Positions 3,294 through 36,766 of a stretch of 64,000 nt of DNA are shown piece by piece. The position numbers were made by a program, and so were the translations under genes. Within the stretch, counting starts at the first letter, position 1. Each line of letters begins with the position of its first letter. The notes under the pieces are model-generated. The model did not search any database. It was given only the letters and a program-made list of their open reading frames with translations, and was not told the DNA's origin. The DNA lies in the NCBI RefSeq assembly GCF_053078305.1, contig NZ_CP166879.1. One strand, written 5' to 3'.

Positions 3294-5012
3294 TTATAAT
3301 GGAAAATACTCAAACCCCGAAGCTCCTGACGACACATACTCACCCACGCTGACTGTACGCCACTGAGAACCATCAAATGTCACCTGAAGCGGCCTGTAAG
3401 AAACCGATATCACACCATCTGCTCCTCTACTTTTCAGACCAGTAATCACAGCTCCTATACTCAGGCTTATTGACAGAAAACCAGAGCTCTCTTCTGCTCT
3501 GTAAGTCTGTTCATTACCCAGCCTGATACCCACAACCCGGCTCTTCCCGTCTGATGCCCCGGGCGGCCCCATCGGCCCGGTTTCTCCACGCTCACCTCTG
3601 GGACCGGGGTCGCCTTTCTCCCCTTTCGGTCCCTGCGCTCCCCGCGGACCAGCGGGGCCTGTTGCTCCCGTTTCACCTTTCGGACCCTGTGCTCCGGGGT
3701 CACCTTTCTCTCCTTTCGGACCGGGAACACCACCTCCTGCTGCAGCCTCTTCTGCCTTTGTTTTCGCTTCATTTGCCACATCCATTGCCGCCTTCACGGC
3801 CTTCGGCGTGGCTGCCTTTGTTTCGTCATTACTGCCAGTATCACTGCTTAACTGCACCACACCTTTCTGCGTCGTGCTGGCATCCCGCTGGCTGACCGTA
3901 TCCGGTTTGTTTTTTGTGCTGTAATCCACCCGCCAGTGGAAATACCGTGTGTCGCCGTAAACCGTACAGGTACAGACCGTGCCATTAATAAACCCCGTTG
4001 CACCGTATTCGCCAATGGTGACCCGGACTATGGCAGCCTCATACGTTCCCATCACCTCAATGACACAGCCACCCAGATTGAGTTTTCCCGGTCCGACATC
4101 CGTGATGACTTTATTCATTGACGCAAGCAGTGATGCCTTCATCATCCAGTAAGGCTGGTCAAATGCCCCTTTTTCTTTCAGCCAGGCAACAAACTCGCGT
4201 GTTTTCCATTCACCGGCCCCCGTATGAATGTCCCGCCCGTATACTCTGGCTGCTCCCACGGTGTTCAGAAACTTCACCTTATCCGGGATATCATCACCGT
4301 TTTTCGCTTTCTCCAGGCATCCGTCCGCTTTGTCCATTGCCGCTTTCACCGCTTTCGGCGTGGCTGCCTTCGTTTCATCATCACTGTCCGTTGCGCTGCT
4401 TAACTGCACAATTCCCTTCTGTGCCGTCGTCGCATCCGGCCCTCCCGGCTCGCCTTTTTCGCCCTTCTCTCCCCGTTCACCTTTCACACCCTGAAGCCCC
4501 TGTGGTCCTGTCTCACCACGCTCACCCTTTGGCCCCCGCTCGCCGGTATCGCCTTTTGGCCCGGGAATACCCTGCGGCCCGGTGTCCCCCTTATCCCCCT
4601 TCGGTCCCCGCGCATTCTCTGCCCGTTTCTTCGCTTCCTCTGCACTCGCCGCTGACGCTTCCGCACGTTTCAGGATTTCCGCTGCCACCGCTTCCAGCTC
4701 TGCAAGGGCTTTCGGGTAATACTGTGCGTCTTCCAGGTCCATCAGAAATTTATTCAGCGTTCCCGGTGCAGAATCCGCCTTCACCAGAATGTCACCCACA
4801 TATGACGGCGCGTACCCTTCCGTGTTCAGCGTCACCCGGTACAACCCCGGCTCAACATCCATACTGTAACTGCCGGTTTCCCCCGGCTGACCATACGCCA
4901 CCGTGGTGACAATCACCATCTCCGTTGTGCGGCGCGCTTTCAGCTCTATCGTGCATCCCGGTACTGGTTTTCCCGTACCATCCTTCAGCACACCCGATAT
5001 TCTGACTGTCAT
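3294..5012 (-). CDS. stf: Side tail fiber protein with collagen-like G-x-x repeats
   Basis: Two blocks of [13 protein letters not shown]... repeats; conserved [10 protein letters not shown] motif twice; follows J. Confidence 0.75.
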
Positions 5013-25449: not shown

Positions 25450-25917
25450 CTAGTTAATACACTGAGTGCGGATATATTCCTTCGCCCCTTCCAGCTGCTT
25501 CTGCATTGTCATCAACCGTTCTCTGAGGATGAAATAATCCCGTTCAGCGGTGTCTGCCAGTCGGGGGCCGGTTGCATTATCCACGCCGGAGGTGGTGGGG
25601 GCTTCACGCACGGAGCCTGGACAGGTGGCTTTAACCCGCAGGCGCTTACGACCAGCGGCAACATCAGCACGCAGAGTTTCATTTTCAGCTCTCGCATCGG
25701 CTAATTCCCTCGAGTATTTAGCATCGAGCGCAGCAACATCGCGCTGGCGCTGCTGCATATCAGTAATGGTTGCGTTTGCCAGCTCCAGCTCTCTGGCTTT
25801 TTTATCGCGCTGCGCTTTGTAGGTGATGGCGTTATCGCGGTAATGATTCAGCCCCAGACTAAGCGCACCACAGGCCACCAGCAGGACAATAATCACCACA
25901 CACAGAACACGGTTCAT
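25450..25917 (-). CDS. Rz: i-spanin Rz
   Basis: ...[45 protein letters not shown]... matches lambda Rz. Confidence 0.9.
25512..25697 (-). CDS. Rz1: o-spanin Rz1 lipoprotein, embedded in +1 frame of Rz
   Basis: ...[27 protein letters not shown]... matches lambda Rz1; lipobox VSAC. Confidence 0.85.
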
Positions 25918-26849
25918 ATCACCACCATTTCACTGTTTTCTTTTTCCAGACGTTTTTTTGCAACAGCGAAATACCGGTCATCCTTTTCTATTCCGGTAAA
26001 CCGTCTCCCCGTCCGGATACATGCAACACCTGTTGAACCACTCCCCATAGTAAAATCCAGTACCCTGTCGCCAGGGTTGCTGTACGTCTGAATCAGCTCT
26101 TCCAGTAATGCAACTGGCTTCTGGGTCGGATGCCATCGCTCCCGCTCCCGCGCGTACTCCAGAATATTTGCGCGGTATTTTTTCCCCTGAGGGAGATTAA
26201 AAACCACAGTGCCGTAACCGGAATTCACTTTGCACATTTCTTCATATGTCATGAAACCCGGCATACGGTCGATACCAAAGCGTTTAATTAACTCGTTGTA
26301 CGTATCCTGTGAGCAGAGGGAAAACTGGACTGTGTTCACGCGAAAAAAATGCTCTGCCCGACAGTGCCCCAGTGTTTTGTTAACTTCCTTGTCTGTCCTG
26401 TGGCCAATGAAAGAAAGGATATTTCGGGCGTACTCCCTCAGCGGGTGGTTTTTCTCACTGTCATATTTTTTCCGGAAAACAACGATATCCTCGAATAAAG
26501 ATACAGGTGCTTTTTTTACTGAAAGCGGGTTGGGGAAATGCTCCTTCTTCCACACCATACGATATAAAAACGGCAGGTTTTTATCCGCCAGAGTAATCAT
26601 CGTGCTTGTATGCGGCTCCTGGCTGAACATGACCAGCACACCGCCCACCCTCAGCAGTCGTTCGCACTGTGTGAAAATATCTTCAGGATTTAAGGCATCG
26701 TCCCATGCTGTCGTACTCTTATCCCATGTACGGAGTGTAAGCCCTTTAATGGTTCCATACGGCGGGTCACATAAAACCAGGTCAACACTTCCCGGTAGTA
26801 ATGAAGGCATAACATCAAGACAGTCACCGGAATACAGTACACATTTCAT
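25914..26849 (-). CDS. DNA methyltransferase, beta-class (DPPY, N6-adenine or N4-cytosine); stop overlaps Rz start
   Basis: [10 protein letters not shown] near N-terminus; HPTQKP and FTMGSGSTG (SAM-binding) near C-terminus; ATGA overlap with Rz. Confidence 0.75.
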
Positions 26850-26856
26850 GTTTCTG

Positions 26857-26988
26857 TCACCCCACCAGCCCTGACAGAGTTAAGACGCGCCAGGCAGTGG
26901 AAAAGCAAATAGCAACCAGCATTAGTGAAAATGAAATGCCGACGATTACACAGAGGATCTTCGCCAGCATTATGAGTTTGTCTGACAT
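26857..26988 (-). CDS. Small single-pass membrane peptide (43 aa)
   Basis: MSDKLIMLAKILCVIVGISFSLMLVAICF...; GGGAGG RBS; ends 5 nt before the MTase start. Confidence 0.45.
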   Translation of the reverse strand: MSDKLIMLAKILCVIVGISFSLMLVAICFSTAWRVLTLSGLVG

Positions 26989-27002
26989 GTTTAATCCTCC
27001 CT

Positions 27003-27185
27003 TCACGATTTCAACGCAATGACCAGTTTTGCCAGCCCATACAGCATCGGAGACACAGCGATACCGACCGCCACCCACTTAATAGCAAAAGCCAGTGCTC
27101 TGCTGATGTCATCAGTTACTGGCGCTTTCAGTTCAAGGCCGTTTTTCATAGTCAACCTCAACAGAATTCGTTTATACTTTTCCAT
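27003..27185 (-). CDS. Small membrane protein (60 aa from ATG 27185; track ORF uses GTG at 27218)
   Basis: MEKYKRILLRLTMKNGLELKAPV...IKWVAVGIAVSPMLYGLAKLVIALKS; GGGAG RBS; C-terminal TM helix. Confidence 0.45.
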   Translation of the reverse strand: MEKYKRILLRLTMKNGLELKAPVTDDISRALAFAIKWVAVGIAVSPMLYGLAKLVIALKS

Positions 27186-27227
27186 GTTCTCCCTTGCCTT
27201 ATCCAAGGTCAGAAACACAAAACCCCG

Positions 27228-27256
27228 CTTGCTGCCAACAAACGGGGTTTTTACTT
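27228..27256. terminator. Bidirectional hairpin terminator between endolysin and downstream insert
   Basis: aaaaccccg...cggggttttt with A-run and T-run flanks. Confidence 0.5.
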
Positions 27257-27341
27257 TTATTCACTTACATTTTGCCAGTTCGCAGGATTTCGTGTTATCC
27301 GTCCATGTAAGCAAACCTCATTTTTCAGCAAAATATTCTGC

Positions 27342-27875
27342 TTATCTGTCGATTTCCCAGCACGCCAGCGCGCTCTCCTGGTCTCTCCGGGATACCTGAC
27401 CGTAACAGTTATTTGAGCGAATACGGCAGTCTCTGCCACCGTCCTTAATCCACCAGCGAATCGCCTCACACGCTCCCCTGCGATCGCCTGCATTAATTCG
27501 TTTATAAAACGTCGACGGGAAACACTTACCTGGGCCAATGTTGTAAGGACAGAATGACGCGATCCCCGCTTTCTGGGGTTCAGTCAGTGGCACTTTGATG
27601 TTTTTCGCCACCCATGCCAGCGCCTTATCACGTTCAATGGCGTTAACCTGGTCGCATTTTTCCTTCGACAGCTTCATGCCAGGGACGACAGGCTTACCAT
27701 CCACCCGGGTGGCACCACGGCAGATGGTCCAGATACCCGCACCATCACGGTATGCCGTGCTGTGGTTACCTTCTTTTTCGTCAAGAAACTGGTCGAGGAT
27801 TTCAGGCGCAGGCGCACCTGCGGCAATCAGCGCCAGAACAGCAGCTGACAGGCCGTATTTGATTTTTGCGTTCAT
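27342..27875 (-). CDS. R: SAR endolysin (phage lysozyme with N-terminal signal-anchor-release domain)
   Basis: N-terminal weakly hydrophobic Gly/Ala-rich TM (LSAAVLALIAAGAPAPE) then lysozyme-like body; pinholin partner upstream. Confidence 0.8.
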   Translation of the reverse strand: MNAKIKYGLSAAVLALIAAGAPAPEILDQFLDEKEGNHSTAYRDGAGIWTICRGATRVDGKPVVPGMKLSKEKCDQVNAIERDKALAWVAKNIKVPLTEPQKAGIASFCPYNIGPGKCFPSTFYKRINAGDRRGACEAIRWWIKDGGRDCRIRSNNCYGQVSRRDQESALACWEIDR

Positions 27876-27911
27876 GTATATATTAAATATTCAGCCGCTG
27901 TCCCTGGCCCA

Positions 27912-28898
27912 CTAAATACGCACTTTAAGATAAGTCAGCCCCGGCTGGATCCAGCCATCAGGCTCTTTCTTAAAGGGTGGCGTATTGAAATCACAAAGAA
28001 GAGCCTCCCGCACCGCAGCATCCCTGTCTGCACCACTGGCAAGTGCTTCAATCTCTGCCGCCAGCTGCAGATATCCCATGCAGCGACCAATGCGCTTCAT
28101 CAGCCCCTGTTTTTTATTGTTCTTCAGGTAATCAATGGCAAATTCAATGAGCGTCTCACTGTGCTGGTGCGATGGCGGTGTTACTTTTCCATTTTCTGAT
28201 ATGGTGATTTTCCCGTCATCACCGGATACAACAAAGGATGGCCGGTTACACTCCCGTTCCTGGTTTTTGTCCGACACAGGCACAGTAAAATCACTTTCAT
28301 GCCCGTTTTTACGACAGTCCTCGCCACGTACCGCAGCAAATACCGACAAGGCATACTCCTTTGCTCTCGCTTCATAGTCGCTGAATGTTGTTTTCGGATC
28401 GTAGTCTTCCCTGTACATAACCGACAGAACTTCCTCATGATCAATATGAACACTGACCACGCTGCCTATTCTTTTGGTCAGCACAAGACGAGAATCTTCC
28501 CCGACTTTCACTCCTGGTGTCACACGTGCCGGAAGCTCCACATTAACCATCGCGCTCTGCACATCATCAGGCGCATTTTTTACCGGTTCGTTGACCTTTT
28601 CACGCCCCGGGTAAGTGGCGATTTTTTCCGGCATTGTCCATGAAGAAATATTCTGAAAGCCACATCGCGCAGTCCCTTCGCGTAATCCGAGAGCCGCATC
28701 CATGAAAAACTGCTTCGCCTGTTTTTTCGCCTCAGCTTCGTAAAATTCCAGCGTGGCACCTTCAGTACGGTCAAGACTAATCGCCACATATGGCGACAAC
28801 AACGACGGCTGACCGGCAATTTCCAGTGCCACCGTAACAGTTATCTTATCCGGGTAATGATTTATCCCTTTTACAACCAGTTCATATTTGTTATTCAT
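27912..28898 (-). CDS. Unknown 328-aa protein inserted between holin and endolysin
   Basis: MNNKYELVVKGINHYPDKITVTVALEIAG...; GGGGAGAG RBS; start 5 nt after S stop; no TM or signal peptide; no motif I can assign. Confidence 0.7.
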   Translation of the reverse strand: MNNKYELVVKGINHYPDKITVTVALEIAGQPSLLSPYVAISLDRTEGATLEFYEAEAKKQAKQFFMDAALGLREGTARCGFQNISSWTMPEKIATYPGREKVNEPVKNAPDDVQSAMVNVELPARVTPGVKVGEDSRLVLTKRIGSVVSVHIDHEEVLSVMYREDYDPKTTFSDYEARAKEYALSVFAAVRGEDCRKNGHESDFTVPVSDKNQERECNRPSFVVSGDDGKITISENGKVTPPSHQHSETLIEFAIDYLKNNKKQGLMKRIGRCMGYLQLAAEIEALASGADRDAAVREALLCDFNTPPFKKEPDGWIQPGLTYLKVRI

Positions 28899-28902
28899 CG
28901 CT

Positions 28903-29118
28903 TTACTCTCCCCGGGCCGCCTTACGCCGGTCTTCTCTGATTTTAAAATACAGGTTCGTCAGGTATGTCAGCAGACCAAACAGCAGACTCCCCAGCACGC
29001 CTATTGCCGCCCACTGAGACGGGGAAACCCTGTCCAGCAACTGCAGGAACCAGTAGCCCGTTCCCACCGCTGACGTGGTGTATGACACACCTGTTGTGAT
29101 TTTTTCCATCTGGTACAT
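28903..29118 (-). CDS. S: Class II pinholin (phage 21 S-like), dual-start motif MYQMEK
   Basis: ...[51 protein letters not shown] matches S21; GGGAGACGGGG RBS. Confidence 0.85.
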
Positions 29119-29194
29119 ACCCCGTCTCCCGCAATCCGGAAGCTCACAACAATATAAAGACCACCGGCACACACCGATGGTCCCTTGCGCATGC

Positions 29195-29440
29195 TTACAT
29201 CATCATGTCGCTGTCAGGTGTGGGTTCACCGCCATCTGAAGCACTCCCCTCACCCGCAATGCCTTCCGGCTCCGGAACTGCCGGTGCGCCCAGCAGTTCA
29301 TCCAGAATGGCATCCACTTCTGCATCAAGACGCGCCTCAAGGTTCTGGCGGAGTTTCTGTTTCAGTGCGCTCAGGACTTCTTCAGAGCGCAGGACTTCCT
29401 TCACTGCCTCTGCAGTGACCAGGGATGTAATTTCTGACAT
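29195..29440 (-). CDS. Hypothetical acidic 81-aa protein
   Basis: [30 protein letters not shown]... from internal ATG of track ORF 29195-29614. Confidence 0.4.
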
Positions 29441-29798: not shown

Positions 29799-31766
29799 TC
29801 ATGCCGCGACGTCCGCGTTGTTCACTTCCACCTTCACACTGTCAATCAGCAGCGTATATGCCGCCGCCTTTGATATGTCTGTCAGTTGCAGTTTGTCCGC
29901 CGACCCTGATGCCGGAGATTTCACCAGTGTGAACGGTGTACCCCGTTTCTCATCCAGTACCGGCATCACCTGAATGCTGTTGTTTCCGGCAAACTCAAAA
30001 GCCAGTGTGTGCCATCCGTTATCAAAGACCCCGAACGTATCCAGCTTCGCATTCTGCTTCTTGTGGTACATCGCGTTCAGGTTCGTCGCATCCGTCTGCA
30101 GGAAGAAGGACATCAGCATGTCGTTGCCTTCCTCTGACAGCGTCACTCCCTCCGGCAGGGACGGCAACTGCCAGTAAATACCCAGGGCAAACTGATTCGG
30201 CACCAGTGCGCCCGGCACCTTAAACCGCACGCTCACACGTCCGCCTTTCTTCAGCAACTCTGCTCCCTGCCCGGCGGCATCATGCTCCAGAAACCAGATG
30301 TGGCTTTCCGGTTTGTTCAGTTGCAGGGCCTTACCACCGGTGGCACCCTCATCACTGACCACAGCCTCAGCGATGTTTTTATCAACACTGTCTCCGCTCG
30401 CCGGTTTGTGATAATAGCGCCAGCCCTGTGATGCCAGGTCTTCACCGGACGCCAGCAGACTCATCAGGGTTCGGTTACTGACCGGGGCTTCCGGCTCTCT
30501 CTCCGGGCCTTCACCGGAAGGTCCGGTGGGCTTCACCGTATCAGGCTGTTTTCCGGTAATGAATTCAGCGGTTCTCCCGGCATGCACCAGAATCGCCGTT
30601 GCCAGACGGTCGGAAATAATCCCACGGCGTGCCCAGGTGCTGAAATGGCTGGCCCTGTCCACAGATGTCCAGGTCTTCTGGTCATTACGCCACTTTGAAC
30701 CGTAATAACCGACGGCTTCCAGGTCCGGGTCTTCTGCCGGGTCATTGGTCTGCACATTCGCACCATTCTCATCCGTCATTAACGGTACAAAGAAAATGTT
30801 CTGCGACTCCTTACCCTTATACCCTCCGTATACTGATGCATACCCTTCCGCATGACGCTGCTTCCAGAAATACGTTGTGTCCCCGCAAATCCACGGTACC
30901 GTTGATGCGCTGCCTCCTGTGCACTGTGATGCCTGACCGGCAAGGTCCGTTCTGAACTGATTCACCATCGCACTAAACAGCCCCGGATGCTGCGCATGCG
31001 TCCCCACTGCCGCATCACCTTCTCCCTGCATCCACACCACCGCAAGCAGACGGTTTTTCGGGTTCTTCGCCAGTGCGGCTTTAGTCCGGCTCACCAAATC
31101 CTGATACAGCGGCTTACCCACACCCCAGCGCAGTGAATTTTCCGATGCACCGGCTGATTCGCTGTATGTGCCGTCTGCACCCGTTGTGAATGCCGAAGCA
31201 CCACGGCAGCACGGAACCAGCAAAATGCCCGCATTCGCCGGTATAAACGGCAGCAGTTTTTTGGCGATATGCAGCCCCTGCCCCACGGTTCCGTACTGCC
31301 CCTTTGACAGGTCCGCTTTCGGATGGTTAAGACGGCTCATGTCCTGCACATCATGCAGACAATGGTCCGCCGGAATAATGTCGTTATACTTACAGGCGGC
31401 ACCGCCCGGTGTCACCGTACTGCGACGCGCCAGCTGCTTAATACGCGGGTCCGGACGGTCATATGTCTCCGGCAGCGGAAGGCCTTCACCATACGACATG
31501 CCGTTTGACTGCCCCGCCAGAACAACAACAAAGTAATACTCCGGTTCGCTGGTGGCGCTGATAACTGTGCCTTCTCCATCCGACGGCTTCACCACCACAG
31601 GTGTGGTGACATCACCTTCCGCCGCAATAGCCTGCATCAGGGTATAAGGCGTGATGGCCACCGGACTGCCAAATGGCTGCCACCCCTCCTTCAGTTTTTG
31701 AGTCAGTCGCTCCGCAAGGTCTGACGGCGACGCCGCCCTGACCACGTCATAGTGTTTAAATGCCAT
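29799..31766 (-). CDS. nanS-p: NanS-p-like sialate O-acetylesterase (DUF1737 N-terminus + SASA/SGNH domain)
   Basis: VVLAGQSNGMSYG catalytic-Ser motif; 655 aa; occupies the position seen downstream of stx in Stx phages. Confidence 0.7.
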   Translation of the reverse strand: MAFKHYDVVRAASPSDLAERLTQKLKEGWQPFGSPVAITPYTLMQAIAAEGDVTTPVVVKPSDGEGTVISATSEPEYYFVVVLAGQSNGMSYGEGLPLPETYDRPDPRIKQLARRSTVTPGGAACKYNDIIPADHCLHDVQDMSRLNHPKADLSKGQYGTVGQGLHIAKKLLPFIPANAGILLVPCCRGASAFTTGADGTYSESAGASENSLRWGVGKPLYQDLVSRTKAALAKNPKNRLLAVVWMQGEGDAAVGTHAQHPGLFSAMVNQFRTDLAGQASQCTGGSASTVPWICGDTTYFWKQRHAEGYASVYGGYKGKESQNIFFVPLMTDENGANVQTNDPAEDPDLEAVGYYGSKWRNDQKTWTSVDRASHFSTWARRGIISDRLATAILVHAGRTAEFITGKQPDTVKPTGPSGEGPEREPEAPVSNRTLMSLLASGEDLASQGWRYYHKPASGDSVDKNIAEAVVSDEGATGGKALQLNKPESHIWFLEHDAAGQGAELLKKGGRVSVRFKVPGALVPNQFALGIYWQLPSLPEGVTLSEEGNDMLMSFFLQTDATNLNAMYHKKQNAKLDTFGVFDNGWHTLAFEFAGNNSIQVMPVLDEKRGTPFTLVKSPASGSADKLQLTDISKAAAYTLLIDSVKVEVNNADVAA

Positions 31767-31963: not shown

Positions 31964-31993
31964 GCCCGCATCTCACCATGCGGGCTTTTTTTA
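31964..31993 (+). terminator. Rho-independent terminator on + strand
   Basis: cccgcat-ctcacc-atgcggg hairpin followed by cttttttta. Confidence 0.5.
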
Positions 31994-32000
31994 TCCATAA

Positions 32001-32238
32001 GAAAGCCCCTCCGGAGAGGGGCTGGAGTAGCGCTATGTACCGTTCATTACATGATGCCGGGTGCCTCCCGGTGAGTTCAGCCCGGTGCCACCGAACCCGC
32101 GTCATTCTCGCTAACGATCATCAGAGACCATTCCGTACACCAGCCGCCCCTCCGCACAGGGGGATTCATCATGCAGAAATTTTTTAACAAATTCTCAGTC
32201 GGGAAGACAACCTTCAACTGACTGAATTGTGAGCAACA
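32001..32238. repeat. Structured repeat unit 1 (~238 bp), diverged copy of unit at 32489-32723
   Basis: Shared blocks: gcccctccggagaggggc hairpin, gccgggtgcctcccggtgagttcag, cccctccgcacagggggattca-ATG, ttttaacaaa, ctgaattgtgag. Confidence 0.7.
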
Positions 32239-32488
32239 TAGCATTTAACGGGGAACCTGTTTTCTGCAGTAAAAAGGCCCACCGGAGCGGACGGGCCTGG
32301 AAGGATAGCGGTCATGTGATGCCGGTTTCCCGGTAACTCAGCACCGGTATCTGAGTCAACGTTTTCTCTACTGGGTCATTTCCGATACGCCCTGCCTGCT
32401 GACAGGCTTTCATCACATCTGAAAATATAGCACCCTGACTGATACTGTAGTACCCAAGGTTCCAGAAACTGTGATGTATCCGGCACAG

Positions 32489-32723
32489 AAAAGCCCCTCC
32501 GGAGAGGGGCTGACGCTGCGTATCTGTATCATCATGCGCATGGTGCCGGGTGCCTCCCGGTGAGTTCAGTATCAGCACCTGAACCCGCACAGAAAGGATA
32601 AGGGATGTAACCAAACACCTGTCGCTGATATGCCCCTCCGCTCAGGGGGATTCACCATGCCAGTTTCTTTTAACAAACTCCCCGCAAATCAGACAACTGT
32701 CAACCGTCTGAATTGTGAGACAT
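32489..32723. repeat. Structured repeat unit 2 (~235 bp)
   Basis: Same block order as unit 1; hairpins preserved by compensatory changes (ccgcaca vs ccgctca loop). Confidence 0.7.
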
Positions 32724-32789: not shown

Positions 32790-33725
32790 TTAACGTATGT
32801 GCACACAACCTGAACCGGCATCAAAAAACAAACCGTGCACTGACAGAAAACGGGAAACCTCCGTCCGCTGATCATCACTCATTAAGGACCACACAAAGGC
32901 GTTATGCTCATCTTCAAGTTTCCGTCTTCTTGTTTGCCTTACAAGCAACTCAGCCGTCACCTGTACAATGTCAATGACCACCTTCTCTTCAGCAATGTAC
33001 GGCCTGTTCCAGTTCTCTGTGTTAATCTTCTCCGTCACCGGCGCTGACTTTTTGCAAGTTTCCCCATTAAACCCGACGCCATAAACAACAACATCATCGC
33101 TTTGCTTTTCGTTATCAATAATGACGAATAATACAGAAACCGATGTATCAGCGAACCCGCCTGAAATCTGAACCAACTCAACAACGCGGTTGCCAAAATA
33201 CTGACGCATTGCCAGCTCACCACGCCTGTAACCAACCCCGGGAAAGCACAAAAAAAATGAAAATCTTGCCTTCATACTCGCCAGAACATAAAACGCGTCA
33301 TCCAGAACACCGGAGGTCTTTTTATAAGGCATCATCGCTGAAATCTTCTCCCTGATATCCGCGCTCTGTGCTTTGTACTGTAGCGAAAAAGGCGGATTCA
33401 TGATGACACAATCGAACGTGTCCGTGTCACTGACATCATCTATGGCGTTGAAGAAATTTTCATTGACCGTCTTCACTGTGGCATCCGGAAAGTTATCCGG
33501 GATATGCAACAACGGAGAGGCCTGTATATCCACAGCATACAGACTTCCCACCGTGAGAAACTGCTCCAGTTGCCCGGAGCCACACGCACCATCAAAAATA
33601 CTCAGGGGCAGATCACCACAATATTCCCGCACTTTTTCAGCGACAAACCGACGCAAAGGAACGGACGTGATGTACTCTGCGTATTTTCTGGCGACTTCGC
33701 GATTATTGGATTCCTGAAAAACCAT
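32790..33725 (-). CDS. Putative N6-adenine DNA methyltransferase, gamma-class-like (motif I before NPPF)
   Basis: IFDGACGSGQL (SAM-binding) then VIMNPPF; 311 aa, too small for a separate target-recognition domain; lies at stx-equivalent locus. Confidence 0.6.
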   Translation of the reverse strand: MVFQESNNREVARKYAEYITSVPLRRFVAEKVREYCGDLPLSIFDGACGSGQLEQFLTVGSLYAVDIQASPLLHIPDNFPDATVKTVNENFFNAIDDVSDTDTFDCVIMNPPFSLQYKAQSADIREKISAMMPYKKTSGVLDDAFYVLASMKARFSFFLCFPGVGYRRGELAMRQYFGNRVVELVQISGGFADTSVSVLFVIIDNEKQSDDVVVYGVGFNGETCKKSAPVTEKINTENWNRPYIAEEKVVIDIVQVTAELLVRQTRRRKLEDEHNAFVWSLMSDDQRTEVSRFLSVHGLFFDAGSGCVHIR

Positions 33726-33810
33726 TTGTGAAAGGCTCTGTGGTTGATATGCGCCGGGCGTGGCACGGAGACAAAAAAGGCCCGCAAAAGCGAGCCTGGG
33801 AAAATAAGTG

Positions 33811-33887
33811 TGGCGCGTTGTACTGGATTCGAACCAGTGACCGATTGCTTAGAAGGCAATTGCTCTGTCCGACTGAGCTAACAACGC
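33811..33887 (-). tRNA. argO: tRNA-Arg (anticodon UCU), argO-like
   Basis: Cloverleaf folded by hand: acceptor GCGTTGT/ACAACGC, anticodon loop CTTCTAA, T-loop GGTTCGAATCC, CCA end. Confidence 0.75.
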
Positions 33888-33900
33888 ATGATGCTGATAA

Positions 33901-33977
33901 TGGACCGCCATCGGGGACTTGAACCCCGCGCAGCCAGCTTCGAAGGCTGGCGCTCTGTCCCGATGAGCTAATGGCGG
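33901..33977 (-). tRNA. argN: tRNA-Arg (anticodon UCG as read), argN-like
   Basis: Acceptor CCGCCAT/ATGGCGG, anticodon loop CTTCGAA, T-arm CGGGGTTCAAGTCCCCG. Confidence 0.65.
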
Positions 33978-33986
33978 TATGTGATA

Positions 33987-34062
33987 TGGTGGCCCTTGCT
34001 GGATTTGAACCAGCGACCTGGCGATTATGAGTCGCTCGCTCTCACCACTGAGCTAAAGGGCC
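33987..34062 (-). tRNA. ileZ: tRNA with CAU anticodon, ileX-like (tRNA-Ile2 via lysidine, or Met)
   Basis: GGCCCTTTAGCTCAGTGGTGAGAGC...CTCATAA...GGTTCAAATCC...CCA; close to E. coli ileX. Confidence 0.75.
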
Positions 34063-35720: not shown

Positions 35721-36410
35721 TTAATTGACTTTTGCAATATCTCGTCGTGAAAAGGTCGCTTTTTGTTGCGCTCTTATTTTCACGGAGCAAATCAAGGATT
35801 CTCTATCGAGGCGCTTAAAAATATCGCACATCTCACGCCAGTAGTTCGCATAATTATGGCTCCAGTTATCAGGCTTAACTCCACACAGTCTGGCAAGCTC
35901 CTGTCTCTGGTAGACCTCACACCCGGTAACCCATCCTCTGACATCCTGTGCCGCCAGCCAGATCAACTTCTTCACACGCTCCAGCGTTTTCACTGCAATT
36001 TTTCTGGTACCAGACTGAGTTTTAAATTCATTCCACACCCACTGCGTTATCGCGATCTGATGCTCCCAGCAAATGTTTCCGCCATAACACCACAACAACC
36101 ACGCCTTCTGATGTTCTTCCAGTTCCAGAAGGGCACGCCGCCACGATGATGTTGCAAACTCAACAGGACTGACCAGCGCAATTGATGAGCCTTTCGCCAG
36201 TGATTGTTTACCCGGGATTGGGGGATTATCCCGCGTGATCATTTTTCCGGTTACCTCATCGCGGTAACGAATTTTTTTGCGTCTGTAACGCCCTGTATCG
36301 AACAGGGCATTTTCCTGCCAGGCTTCCAGTTGACCTTTTGTCGCCCCACTGAGATCCGCAGTGGCAATCATGAGTTGCTCACGAACAAACTGTAAATACT
36401 GGTTATTCAT
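35721..36410 (-). CDS. Q: Late antiterminator Q-like protein
   Basis: Position directly upstream of terminator and late genes, downstream of rusA; ~230 aa as Qin-type Q proteins. Confidence 0.55.
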   Translation of the reverse strand: MNNQYLQFVREQLMIATADLSGATKGQLEAWQENALFDTGRYRRKKIRYRDEVTGKMITRDNPPIPGKQSLAKGSSIALVSPVEFATSSWRRALLELEEHQKAWLLWCYGGNICWEHQIAITQWVWNEFKTQSGTRKIAVKTLERVKKLIWLAAQDVRGWVTGCEVYQRQELARLCGVKPDNWSHNYANYWREMCDIFKRLDRESLICSVKIRAQQKATFSRRDIAKVN

Positions 36411-36766
36411 GCACACCCCACCTCTGTAATTTTTATCTCCAGCCGTCCACCAGATACTGGCTTGCCACGTACAATATTGATTTCATCAAACTGCTCGTCA
36501 TCAATAAGCACTCCCGCATGCGTCAGCGCATCCAGCGGTGCTTTCAGAATATTGTCCAGGTCACGACGACGCTTATCCGGTGGCTCTGCAATAATTTTTA
36601 TTGCCAGCCGTCCGGACAGGCTTAATTTCAGCCGCTGCTGGCGAACAATAAGCGCCACTGCACGGCGATAACGCTCCCCGGCTTTTGATACAAAATATGT
36701 GCTGCCACGGCGTCGCCAGTAAGTGTTCACCGTCGGCGGGTAAGGTAAAACCAAATCTATGAGCAT
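36407..36766 (-). CDS. rusA: Holliday junction resolvase RusA
   Basis: ...PYPPTVNTYWRR...KRRRDLDNILKAPLDALTHAGVLIDDEQ...GGRLEIKITE matches RusA. Confidence 0.85.
   Translation of the reverse strand: MLIDLVLPYPPTVNTYWRRRGSTYFVSKAGERYRRAVALIVRQQRLKLSLSGRLAIKIIAEPPDKRRRDLDNILKAPLDALTHAGVLIDDEQFDEINIVRGKPVSGGRLEIKITEVGCA

Follow-up and report, generated by a model that had tools for sequence, protein, structure and literature searches.

We report a 328-codon open reading frame (ORF) that separates the holin and endolysin genes of a lambdoid prophage in the window, the 64,000-nucleotide stretch of contig NZ_CP166879.1 analyzed here. The ORF is a real gene under purifying selection, not a chance ORF. 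Its product is a soluble protein of the YdfR/DUF1327 family and, as judged from profile and alignment matches, is an extended, rare mosaic of three modules (N, M, and C), not the prototype form of the family. It is a rare recombinant member of a known family, and the polymorphic slot that it occupies in the lysis cassette was known as well. Our best explanation, to which we give a probability of roughly 40%, is that this is an optional late-operon accessory gene (a "moron") whose product docks on RNase E and alters RNA turnover.

Gene and lysis cassette

The prophage is a non-Stx lambdoid prophage of Escherichia coli, and its late region lies on the minus strand of the window. The gene and its neighbors in the lysis cassette are as follows.

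28903..29118, minus strand: class II S21-type holin with the dual-start motif MYQM (PHROG holin families 9876 and 20)
28906..28913, minus strand: Shine-Dalgarno sequence (SD) GGGGAGAG within the last holin codons (sequence read and junction comparison of 68 loci)
27912..28898, minus strand: ORF under study, 328 aa, 36.5 kDa, pI 5.7, ATG start (ORF list)
27876..27911, minus strand: 36-nt AT-rich, SD-less leader preceding the endolysin gene (junction comparison)
27342..27875, minus strand: SAR endolysin, R21-type lysozyme (phrog_7 endolysin, E 2.8e-62)

The holin is annotated as a "class II holin family protein" in orthologous loci. Read from the sequence, the holin TAA stop and the ATG of the ORF are separated by AGCG, a spacing of 4 nt. 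The ORF ends with TAG at 27912-27914, and the endolysin gene starts 36 nt further on. A preliminary description of this DNA, made from the letters alone, had placed a 328-aa ORF with a strong ribosome-binding site between the holin and the SAR endolysin. The ORF list and the sequence bear out its coordinates and spacing, and the ribosome-binding site is the SD at the 3′ end of the holin gene. The transcript that it proposed for the ORF and the lysis genes together is also supported. No promoter-like or terminator-like site was found on the minus strand between the holin start and the endolysin stop.

The same description had reported neither a transmembrane segment nor a signal peptide in the product, and none was found. 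The maximum Kyte-Doolittle mean over 19 residues is 1.05, compared with 1.70 for the holin and 1.74 for the endolysin (at residue 9, in its N-terminal hydrophobic segment). The 328-aa protein likewise has no membrane segment, SAR domain, lipoprotein signal, or match to a PHROG of the lysis category. Rfam gave no RNA family within the lysis cassette, and no meaningful DNA repeats were found in 27300-29200.

The late region begins with a regulatory gene, from which the order runs down toward the lysis genes.

35721..36416, minus strand: Q-like antiterminator, first in the downstream order of the late region

Below Q lie a methyltransferase gene, three tRNA genes, a further methyltransferase-like ORF, two copies of the small RNA (sRNA) STnc100, a NanS-p-type esterase gene (29799..31766), small DUF1378 and DUF826 ORFs, and the lysis genes. 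The names DUF1378 and DUF826 come from the PGAP annotation of orthologous loci; PHROGs assigns those ORFs no function. The tandem copies of the prophage sRNA STnc100 (Rfam RF02076; minus strand, 31993-32203 and 32483-32689; 164 and 135 bits) are upstream of the esterase gene, each with the same GC-rich hairpin at its end. A 2026 preprint describes STnc100 as related to the PasD sRNAs of Stx-type prophages. At the position that stxAB takes in Stx phages (32790-34062, minus strand), toxin genes are absent and a 311-aa methyltransferase-like ORF (phrog_6380) is found, downstream of a tRNA-Met, tRNA-Arg, tRNA-Arg cluster.

The lysis cassette has a second break on the minus strand at 25450-27341, between the endolysin and the Rz spanin, which contains the following features.

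27219-27251, minus strand: terminator-like hairpin after the endolysin gene
27003..27218 and 26857..27078, minus strand: two small membrane-protein ORFs
25914..26849, minus strand: DNA methyltransferase between R and Rz
25450..25917, minus strand: Rz spanin

A methyltransferase gene between the lysozyme and Rz genes is also present in two Salmonella loci (L096 and L098) and in E. coli JNEC-KY176.

Family membership and modules

Residues 1-74 of the protein match Pfam DUF1327 (PF07041; i-Evalue 8.2e-32, model positions 1-74 of 93). PHROG 1085, a family of unknown function, covers the whole protein (E 4.8e-115; residues 1-328 against positions 1-296 of the 296-position profile). The nearest protein cluster (P0001) is 96% identical and is named "DUF1327 domain-containing protein," and the N module is 43% identical to residues 1-74 of K-12 YdfR (E 8e-20). 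These matches overturn the preliminary view of an unknown gene with no assignable motif. The gene takes the DUF1327 position, directly 3′ of a class II holin gene and 5′ of a lysozyme gene in a lambdoid prophage. Its size departs from the prototype, a single domain of ~100-116 aa, as the product has 328 aa and two further modules.

The family alignment divides into three modules with variable linkers between them, placed in the window as follows.

28671..28898, minus strand: N module, aa 1-76, DUF1327 domain (Pfam PF07041, AlphaFold)
28284..28562, minus strand: M module, aa ~113-205 (match to phrog_11851)
27915..28253, minus strand: C module, aa 216-328, an orphan domain

Residues G271, R272, P308, K310, W316, P319, and Y323 are invariant in the C module, and the M module is common to N-M proteins such as P0091. 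Among 180 relatives, the architectures are C-only (75), N-C (49), N-only (43), and N-M (5), with M-only (4), N-N (2), M-C (1), and N-M-C (1 cluster) being rarer. In a Rosetta-stone test for N and C, no N-only gene lay within 4 kb of the gene in C-only loci, so neither module obligately accompanies the other. As a test for internal repeats, the N module was compared with M and C by plain BLAST, with no significant result, and profile comparisons of N with C and of M with C gave nothing. The N and M profiles were matched by hhalign at a probability of 71% (E 3.6e-5, 46 columns); tentatively, M is possibly a diverged second DUF1327-like domain.

AlphaFold models the N domain confidently (pLDDT mostly 77-98) as three beta strands and a long helix. 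The C domain modeled alone (pLDDT 92.5, pTM 0.84) is a three-strand meander with four helices, and the M region is poorly modeled (pLDDT < 50). In the fold search that had been suggested earlier, Foldseek with the full model found nothing below E 0.28 in the PDB. Against AFDB50, Foldseek returned the family's own members only. A 79-sequence family profile found nothing meaningful among PDB sequences, and a Pfam scan with the C-module alignment found nothing; in PDB, Pfam, and AFDB, the C module has no relative outside its own family. NCBIfam contains no family for the ORF.

Polymorphism of the holin-endolysin slot

We compared 80 viral contigs that encode a holin 99-100% identical to that of the window; an endolysin gene was found downstream in 68 of them. 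In these 68 loci, the slot between the holin (S) and endolysin (R) genes is empty in 8, holds a DUF1327 gene in 50, holds a C-module-only gene in 8, and has other contents in 2. The inserts in the 60 occupied slots are 374-1445 nt long. Empty slots have the junction TAA GCTG ATG, and the DUF1327 genes of the 50 loci start 3-5 nt past the S stop. The SD at the S end, which the ORF uses in the window, is used by R where the slot is empty. Wherever the slot is occupied (loci L004-L083), the conserved AT-rich, SD-less type of leader precedes R, ending in ...TTTAATATATAC ATG in the window and in ...TTTAATATATCC ATG or ...TGATAAATATCC ATG in other occupied slots. Because an occupied slot costs R the SD at the S end, the amount of endolysin translated relative to holin probably depends on whether the slot is filled.

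In K-12, the Qin prophage has the order essQ-ydfR-rrrQ, and in DLP12 essD and rrrD are adjacent. Among deposited phage genomes, this holin type is present in 434 and the DUF1327 domain in 100; the domain directly follows the holin wherever both coordinates are listed. A family member occupies the slot in H-19B, BP-4795, Stx2 phage 86, Stx2_95, and thousands of E. coli genomes. In the H-19B record (AF034975; L099 1497-1895), S and R are annotated and the 399-nt gap between them is not. The gap is 89% identical to the first 225 nt of the window gene and so holds a DUF1327 family member.

The preliminary description had treated S and R as normally adjacent and the position of the ORF as unusual. 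Adjacency is indeed found in many deposited phages (the 434 with the holin as against the 100 with DUF1327) and is what we take to be the arrangement in phage 21 itself, but the DUF1327 insert is a common and long-catalogued alternative, and the same position is filled in Qin, H-19B, BP-4795, and Stx2 phage 86. Two states of the junction are common: S-R adjacency and a YdfR-family insert. The same description had raised the possibility that the ORF would prove to be conserved between S and R in 21-like phages under a known annotation. The family does lie between S and R in many 21-like prophages, but it carries no known lysis or structural annotation. A literature search for studies of genes at the S-R junction of lambdoid phages turned up nothing specific.

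A survey of S and R homologs for the presence or absence of the gene, also proposed earlier, finds a YdfR-family gene frequently but in an optional slot. The gene is not always present with S and R, as seen in the 8 empty loci of the 68, in DLP12, and in the difference between 434 and 100 phage records. Relatives in Salmonella loci lie between Q and the holin gene, where S and R are adjacent, and two further relatives on metagenome contigs are upstream of the holin gene with S and R adjacent. These placements tie the family to the late operon and not to the S-R junction, and the Salmonella relatives make the protein unlikely to be a lysis component.

Distribution, selection, and annotation

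Of 5426 complete E. coli genomes, 1227 carry the N subtype of the window gene, at 3519 places in all and with up to 8 copies in one genome. The C module is found in 785 of the 5426 genomes and in 5 deposited phage records, which represent four phages. M-module DNA is found in 7 of the 5426 genomes; the N-M-C form is likewise found in 7 and is absent from deposited phage genomes. A search of 1.84 billion representative proteins returned 63 relatives, the named ones coming from E. coli, Shigella, and Salmonella.

Four further E. coli genomes have an intact copy of the ORF, each of precisely 328 codons, giving five copies with that of the window. Pairwise dN/dS values relative to the window copy are 0.22-0.28. 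The N and M modules, which make up the first two thirds of the gene, are nearly identical among copies (dS 0-0.08), and the C module has an omega of 0.20-0.25 at a dS of 0.2-0.45. A low dN/dS combined with a high dS confined to the C module is evidence of purifying selection accompanied by intragenic recombination.

In orthologous loci (L087 6303-7289; L088, L089, and L090), PGAP annotates only the first 225 nt, under the label [quoted passage not shown] and leaves the remaining 760 nt without annotation. These pseudogene flags on an intact 328-codon ORF are an annotation artifact. As PGAP systematically flags long variants as truncated pseudogenes, such variants are hidden from pangenome studies.

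The common N-C variants contain an A8 run (cctgAAAAAAAAcg) that reads A7 in some genomes (L091 2330-2345 versus L001 3530-3540), and the A7 version splits the 329-aa N-C gene into ORFs of 194 aa and 135 aa. The difference could reflect slippage-prone phase variation or sequencing error. The window gene is without the segment that contains the A8 run.

YdfR, RNase E, and the proposed role

The sole experimental data on the family are those of Göpel et al. (RNA Biol 2026, PMC13232886) on K-12 YdfR. YdfR residues 1-72, which constitute the DUF1327 domain, emerged from a two-hybrid library screen. Full-length YdfR interacted with Rne 1-597 and gave no signal with shorter constructs, and Strep-YdfR copurified FLAG-tagged Rne 1-598. 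YdfR eluates contained RNA, detected as DNase-resistant nucleic acid, for which the authors allow that a contaminant may be the RNA binder. Overexpression of YdfR was not toxic and changed few transcripts. The authors liken such binders to T4 Srd, which targets this half of RNase E as well; they cite Qi et al. (2015) for the binding of Srd to the N-terminal half of the enzyme and for its stimulation of host mRNA decay. A genetic screen, likewise as cited in PMC13232886, tied ydfR to envelope integrity.

The K-12 Qin protein (P76160) shares with the window protein the homologous N-terminal domain (43% over 74 residues), the place between a class II holin gene (essQ) and a lysozyme gene (rrrQ), and solubility. 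It has 103 aa, with DUF1327 and a short helix, whereas the 328-aa protein has M and C in addition. The demonstration of RNase E binding and of RNA copurification concerns K-12 YdfR only (PMC13232886). Stx2 phage 86 gp05 (268 aa) and a hypothetical protein of Stx2_95 (329 aa) belong to PHROG 1085, occupy the same slot, and contain the N and C modules. The middle of the Stx-phage YdfR-family proteins has a PEKRP...ITYKGKLPG block and a coiled-coil-like region, whereas the window protein has the M module.

The best explanation above may be set out as follows. The gene sits in a recombination-prone slot between holin and endolysin, shares the Q-dependent late transcript of the lysis genes, and takes its SD from the S end. 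Its product is a soluble cytoplasmic protein of three exchangeable modules. The N-terminal DUF1327 domain would dock on the catalytic N-terminal half of RNase E, as K-12 YdfR does, and M and C would contribute another binding or effector activity. RNA turnover would thereby be altered late in infection, and the protein would act outside the envelope-breaking machinery. The data here establish the family membership, the position and optional character of the slot, the mosaic of modules, the solubility, and the purifying selection; RNase E binding by the 328-aa protein, an effect on RNA decay, and roles for M and C are inferred.

The Pfam DUF1327 and PHROG 1085 matches, the 43% identity to YdfR, and the shared slot in Qin, H-19B, Stx2 phage 86, Stx2_95, and the 100 deposited phage genomes favor this explanation. 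So do the optional, hypervariable slot, the separate occurrence of the modules, the placement of relatives in Salmonella and other phages, the signs of purifying selection, and the YdfR experiments. Against it, RNase E binding is known for the 103-aa K-12 YdfR only, a protein 43% identical in the shared domain, and the fast shuffling of modules would also be expected of a defense or counter-defense gene. The small number of transcripts changed by YdfR, the lack of signal with the shorter Rne constructs, and the possible contaminant in the eluates count against it as well. The protein also has no structural or sequence likeness to the known RNase E regulators considered: the PDB sequence and fold searches gave no match, phiKZ Dip being the subject of a published structural study (PMC4980113), and the Pfam scan found no kinase domain such as that of the T7 gp0.7 kinase.

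Srd, a small soluble phage protein reported to bind RNase E in its catalytic half, is nonetheless the closest functional analogy for the proposed mechanism, the analogy being one by description. It is the product of an early gene of a virulent phage, whereas the gene here is a late gene of a temperate phage. Srd stimulates host mRNA decay, whereas YdfR overexpression has little effect on the transcriptome, both according to the account in PMC13232886. Other lambdoid accessory genes (ant between R and Rz, bor after Rz, and stx and nanS-p upstream of S) are likewise optional cargo at late-operon junctions and are expressed with the operon, and the methyltransferase gene between R and Rz in the window is a further insertion. 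The lambdoid accessory genes named here have known or assignable activities, unlike the YdfR family.

Alternative explanations

The 328-aa protein could instead be a defense, counter-defense, or superinfection-exclusion factor, with the S-R junction a hotspot for conflict genes and the swaps of N, M, and C the trace of an arms race. We consider this unlikely, and it would be compatible with RNase E as the target. The extreme polymorphism of the slot beside a nearly invariant holin speaks for it, as do the mosaic architecture with intragenic recombination (the contrast in dS between C and the other two modules), the multiple copies of the N subtype per genome, and the second insertion in the cassette, the DNA methyltransferase gene between R and Rz. 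However, PADLOC-DB 2.0, which covers known anti-phage defense proteins, gave 0 families at E values up to 1, and neither the Pfam scan of the C module nor the fold searches found a nuclease, toxin, or enzyme-like fold or a catalytic motif. Overproduction of the K-12 homolog is not toxic (PMC13232886), a result that also leaves the abortive-infection toxin of the preliminary description without support; as K-12 YdfR consists of the N domain only, its lack of toxicity has no bearing on M and C. Expression from the late operon would leave little protein in the lysogen, a poor fit to a prophage-encoded defense.

A regulator of lysis timing had also been put forward at the outset. As a cytoplasmic protein, it would bind the pinholin or antiholin tail or affect the supply of endolysin, and there is an analogy in the cytoplasmic T4 RIII protein, which supports lysis inhibition. 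The gene is flanked directly by S and R and uses the SD at the S end, which R loses when the slot is occupied; this loss probably alters the ratio of S to R expression. The link of ydfR to envelope integrity, from the screen cited in PMC13232886, points the same way, but the phenotype of a ydfR knockout could be polar on the downstream lysozyme gene rrrQ. We regard a timing role as improbable, given that the slot is empty in 8 of the 68 loci with the same holin, in DLP12, and in most deposited phages with the holin type, and that Salmonella and other phages encode relatives upstream of the holin. Moreover, the same S and R accompany slot contents that range from N-only to C-only, a variety that fits poorly with a specific partner in the cassette. 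It is very improbable indeed that the ORF is functionless debris, open by chance at a junction where prophages recombine. Although PGAP calls the orthologs truncated pseudogenes and related variants include frameshift-split versions, the PGAP flags are artifacts, the 328-codon frame is intact in all five copies at a low dN/dS, the C module keeps its low omega despite a dS of up to 0.45, and the N and C domains are predicted by AlphaFold to fold with high confidence.

Significance

YdfR-family genes are among the commonest unexplained genes of E. coli prophages and are expressed alongside the late genes of Shiga-toxin phages. A wider generalization of the RNase E reading, which we hold to be doubtful, would assign to DUF1327 the task of docking on RNase E; YdfR-family members would be modular late proteins in which this domain is joined to exchangeable effectors (M, C, and the coiled-coil-like middles). 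In that case, the holin-endolysin junction of enterobacterial lambdoid prophages would serve as a hypervariable hotspot whose products, shortly before lysis, reprogram RNA decay or act against RNA-based immunity. If the link to RNase E holds across the family, it would represent a strategy by which temperate phages control host RNA decay late in infection, and it would explain the variability of the S-R junction.
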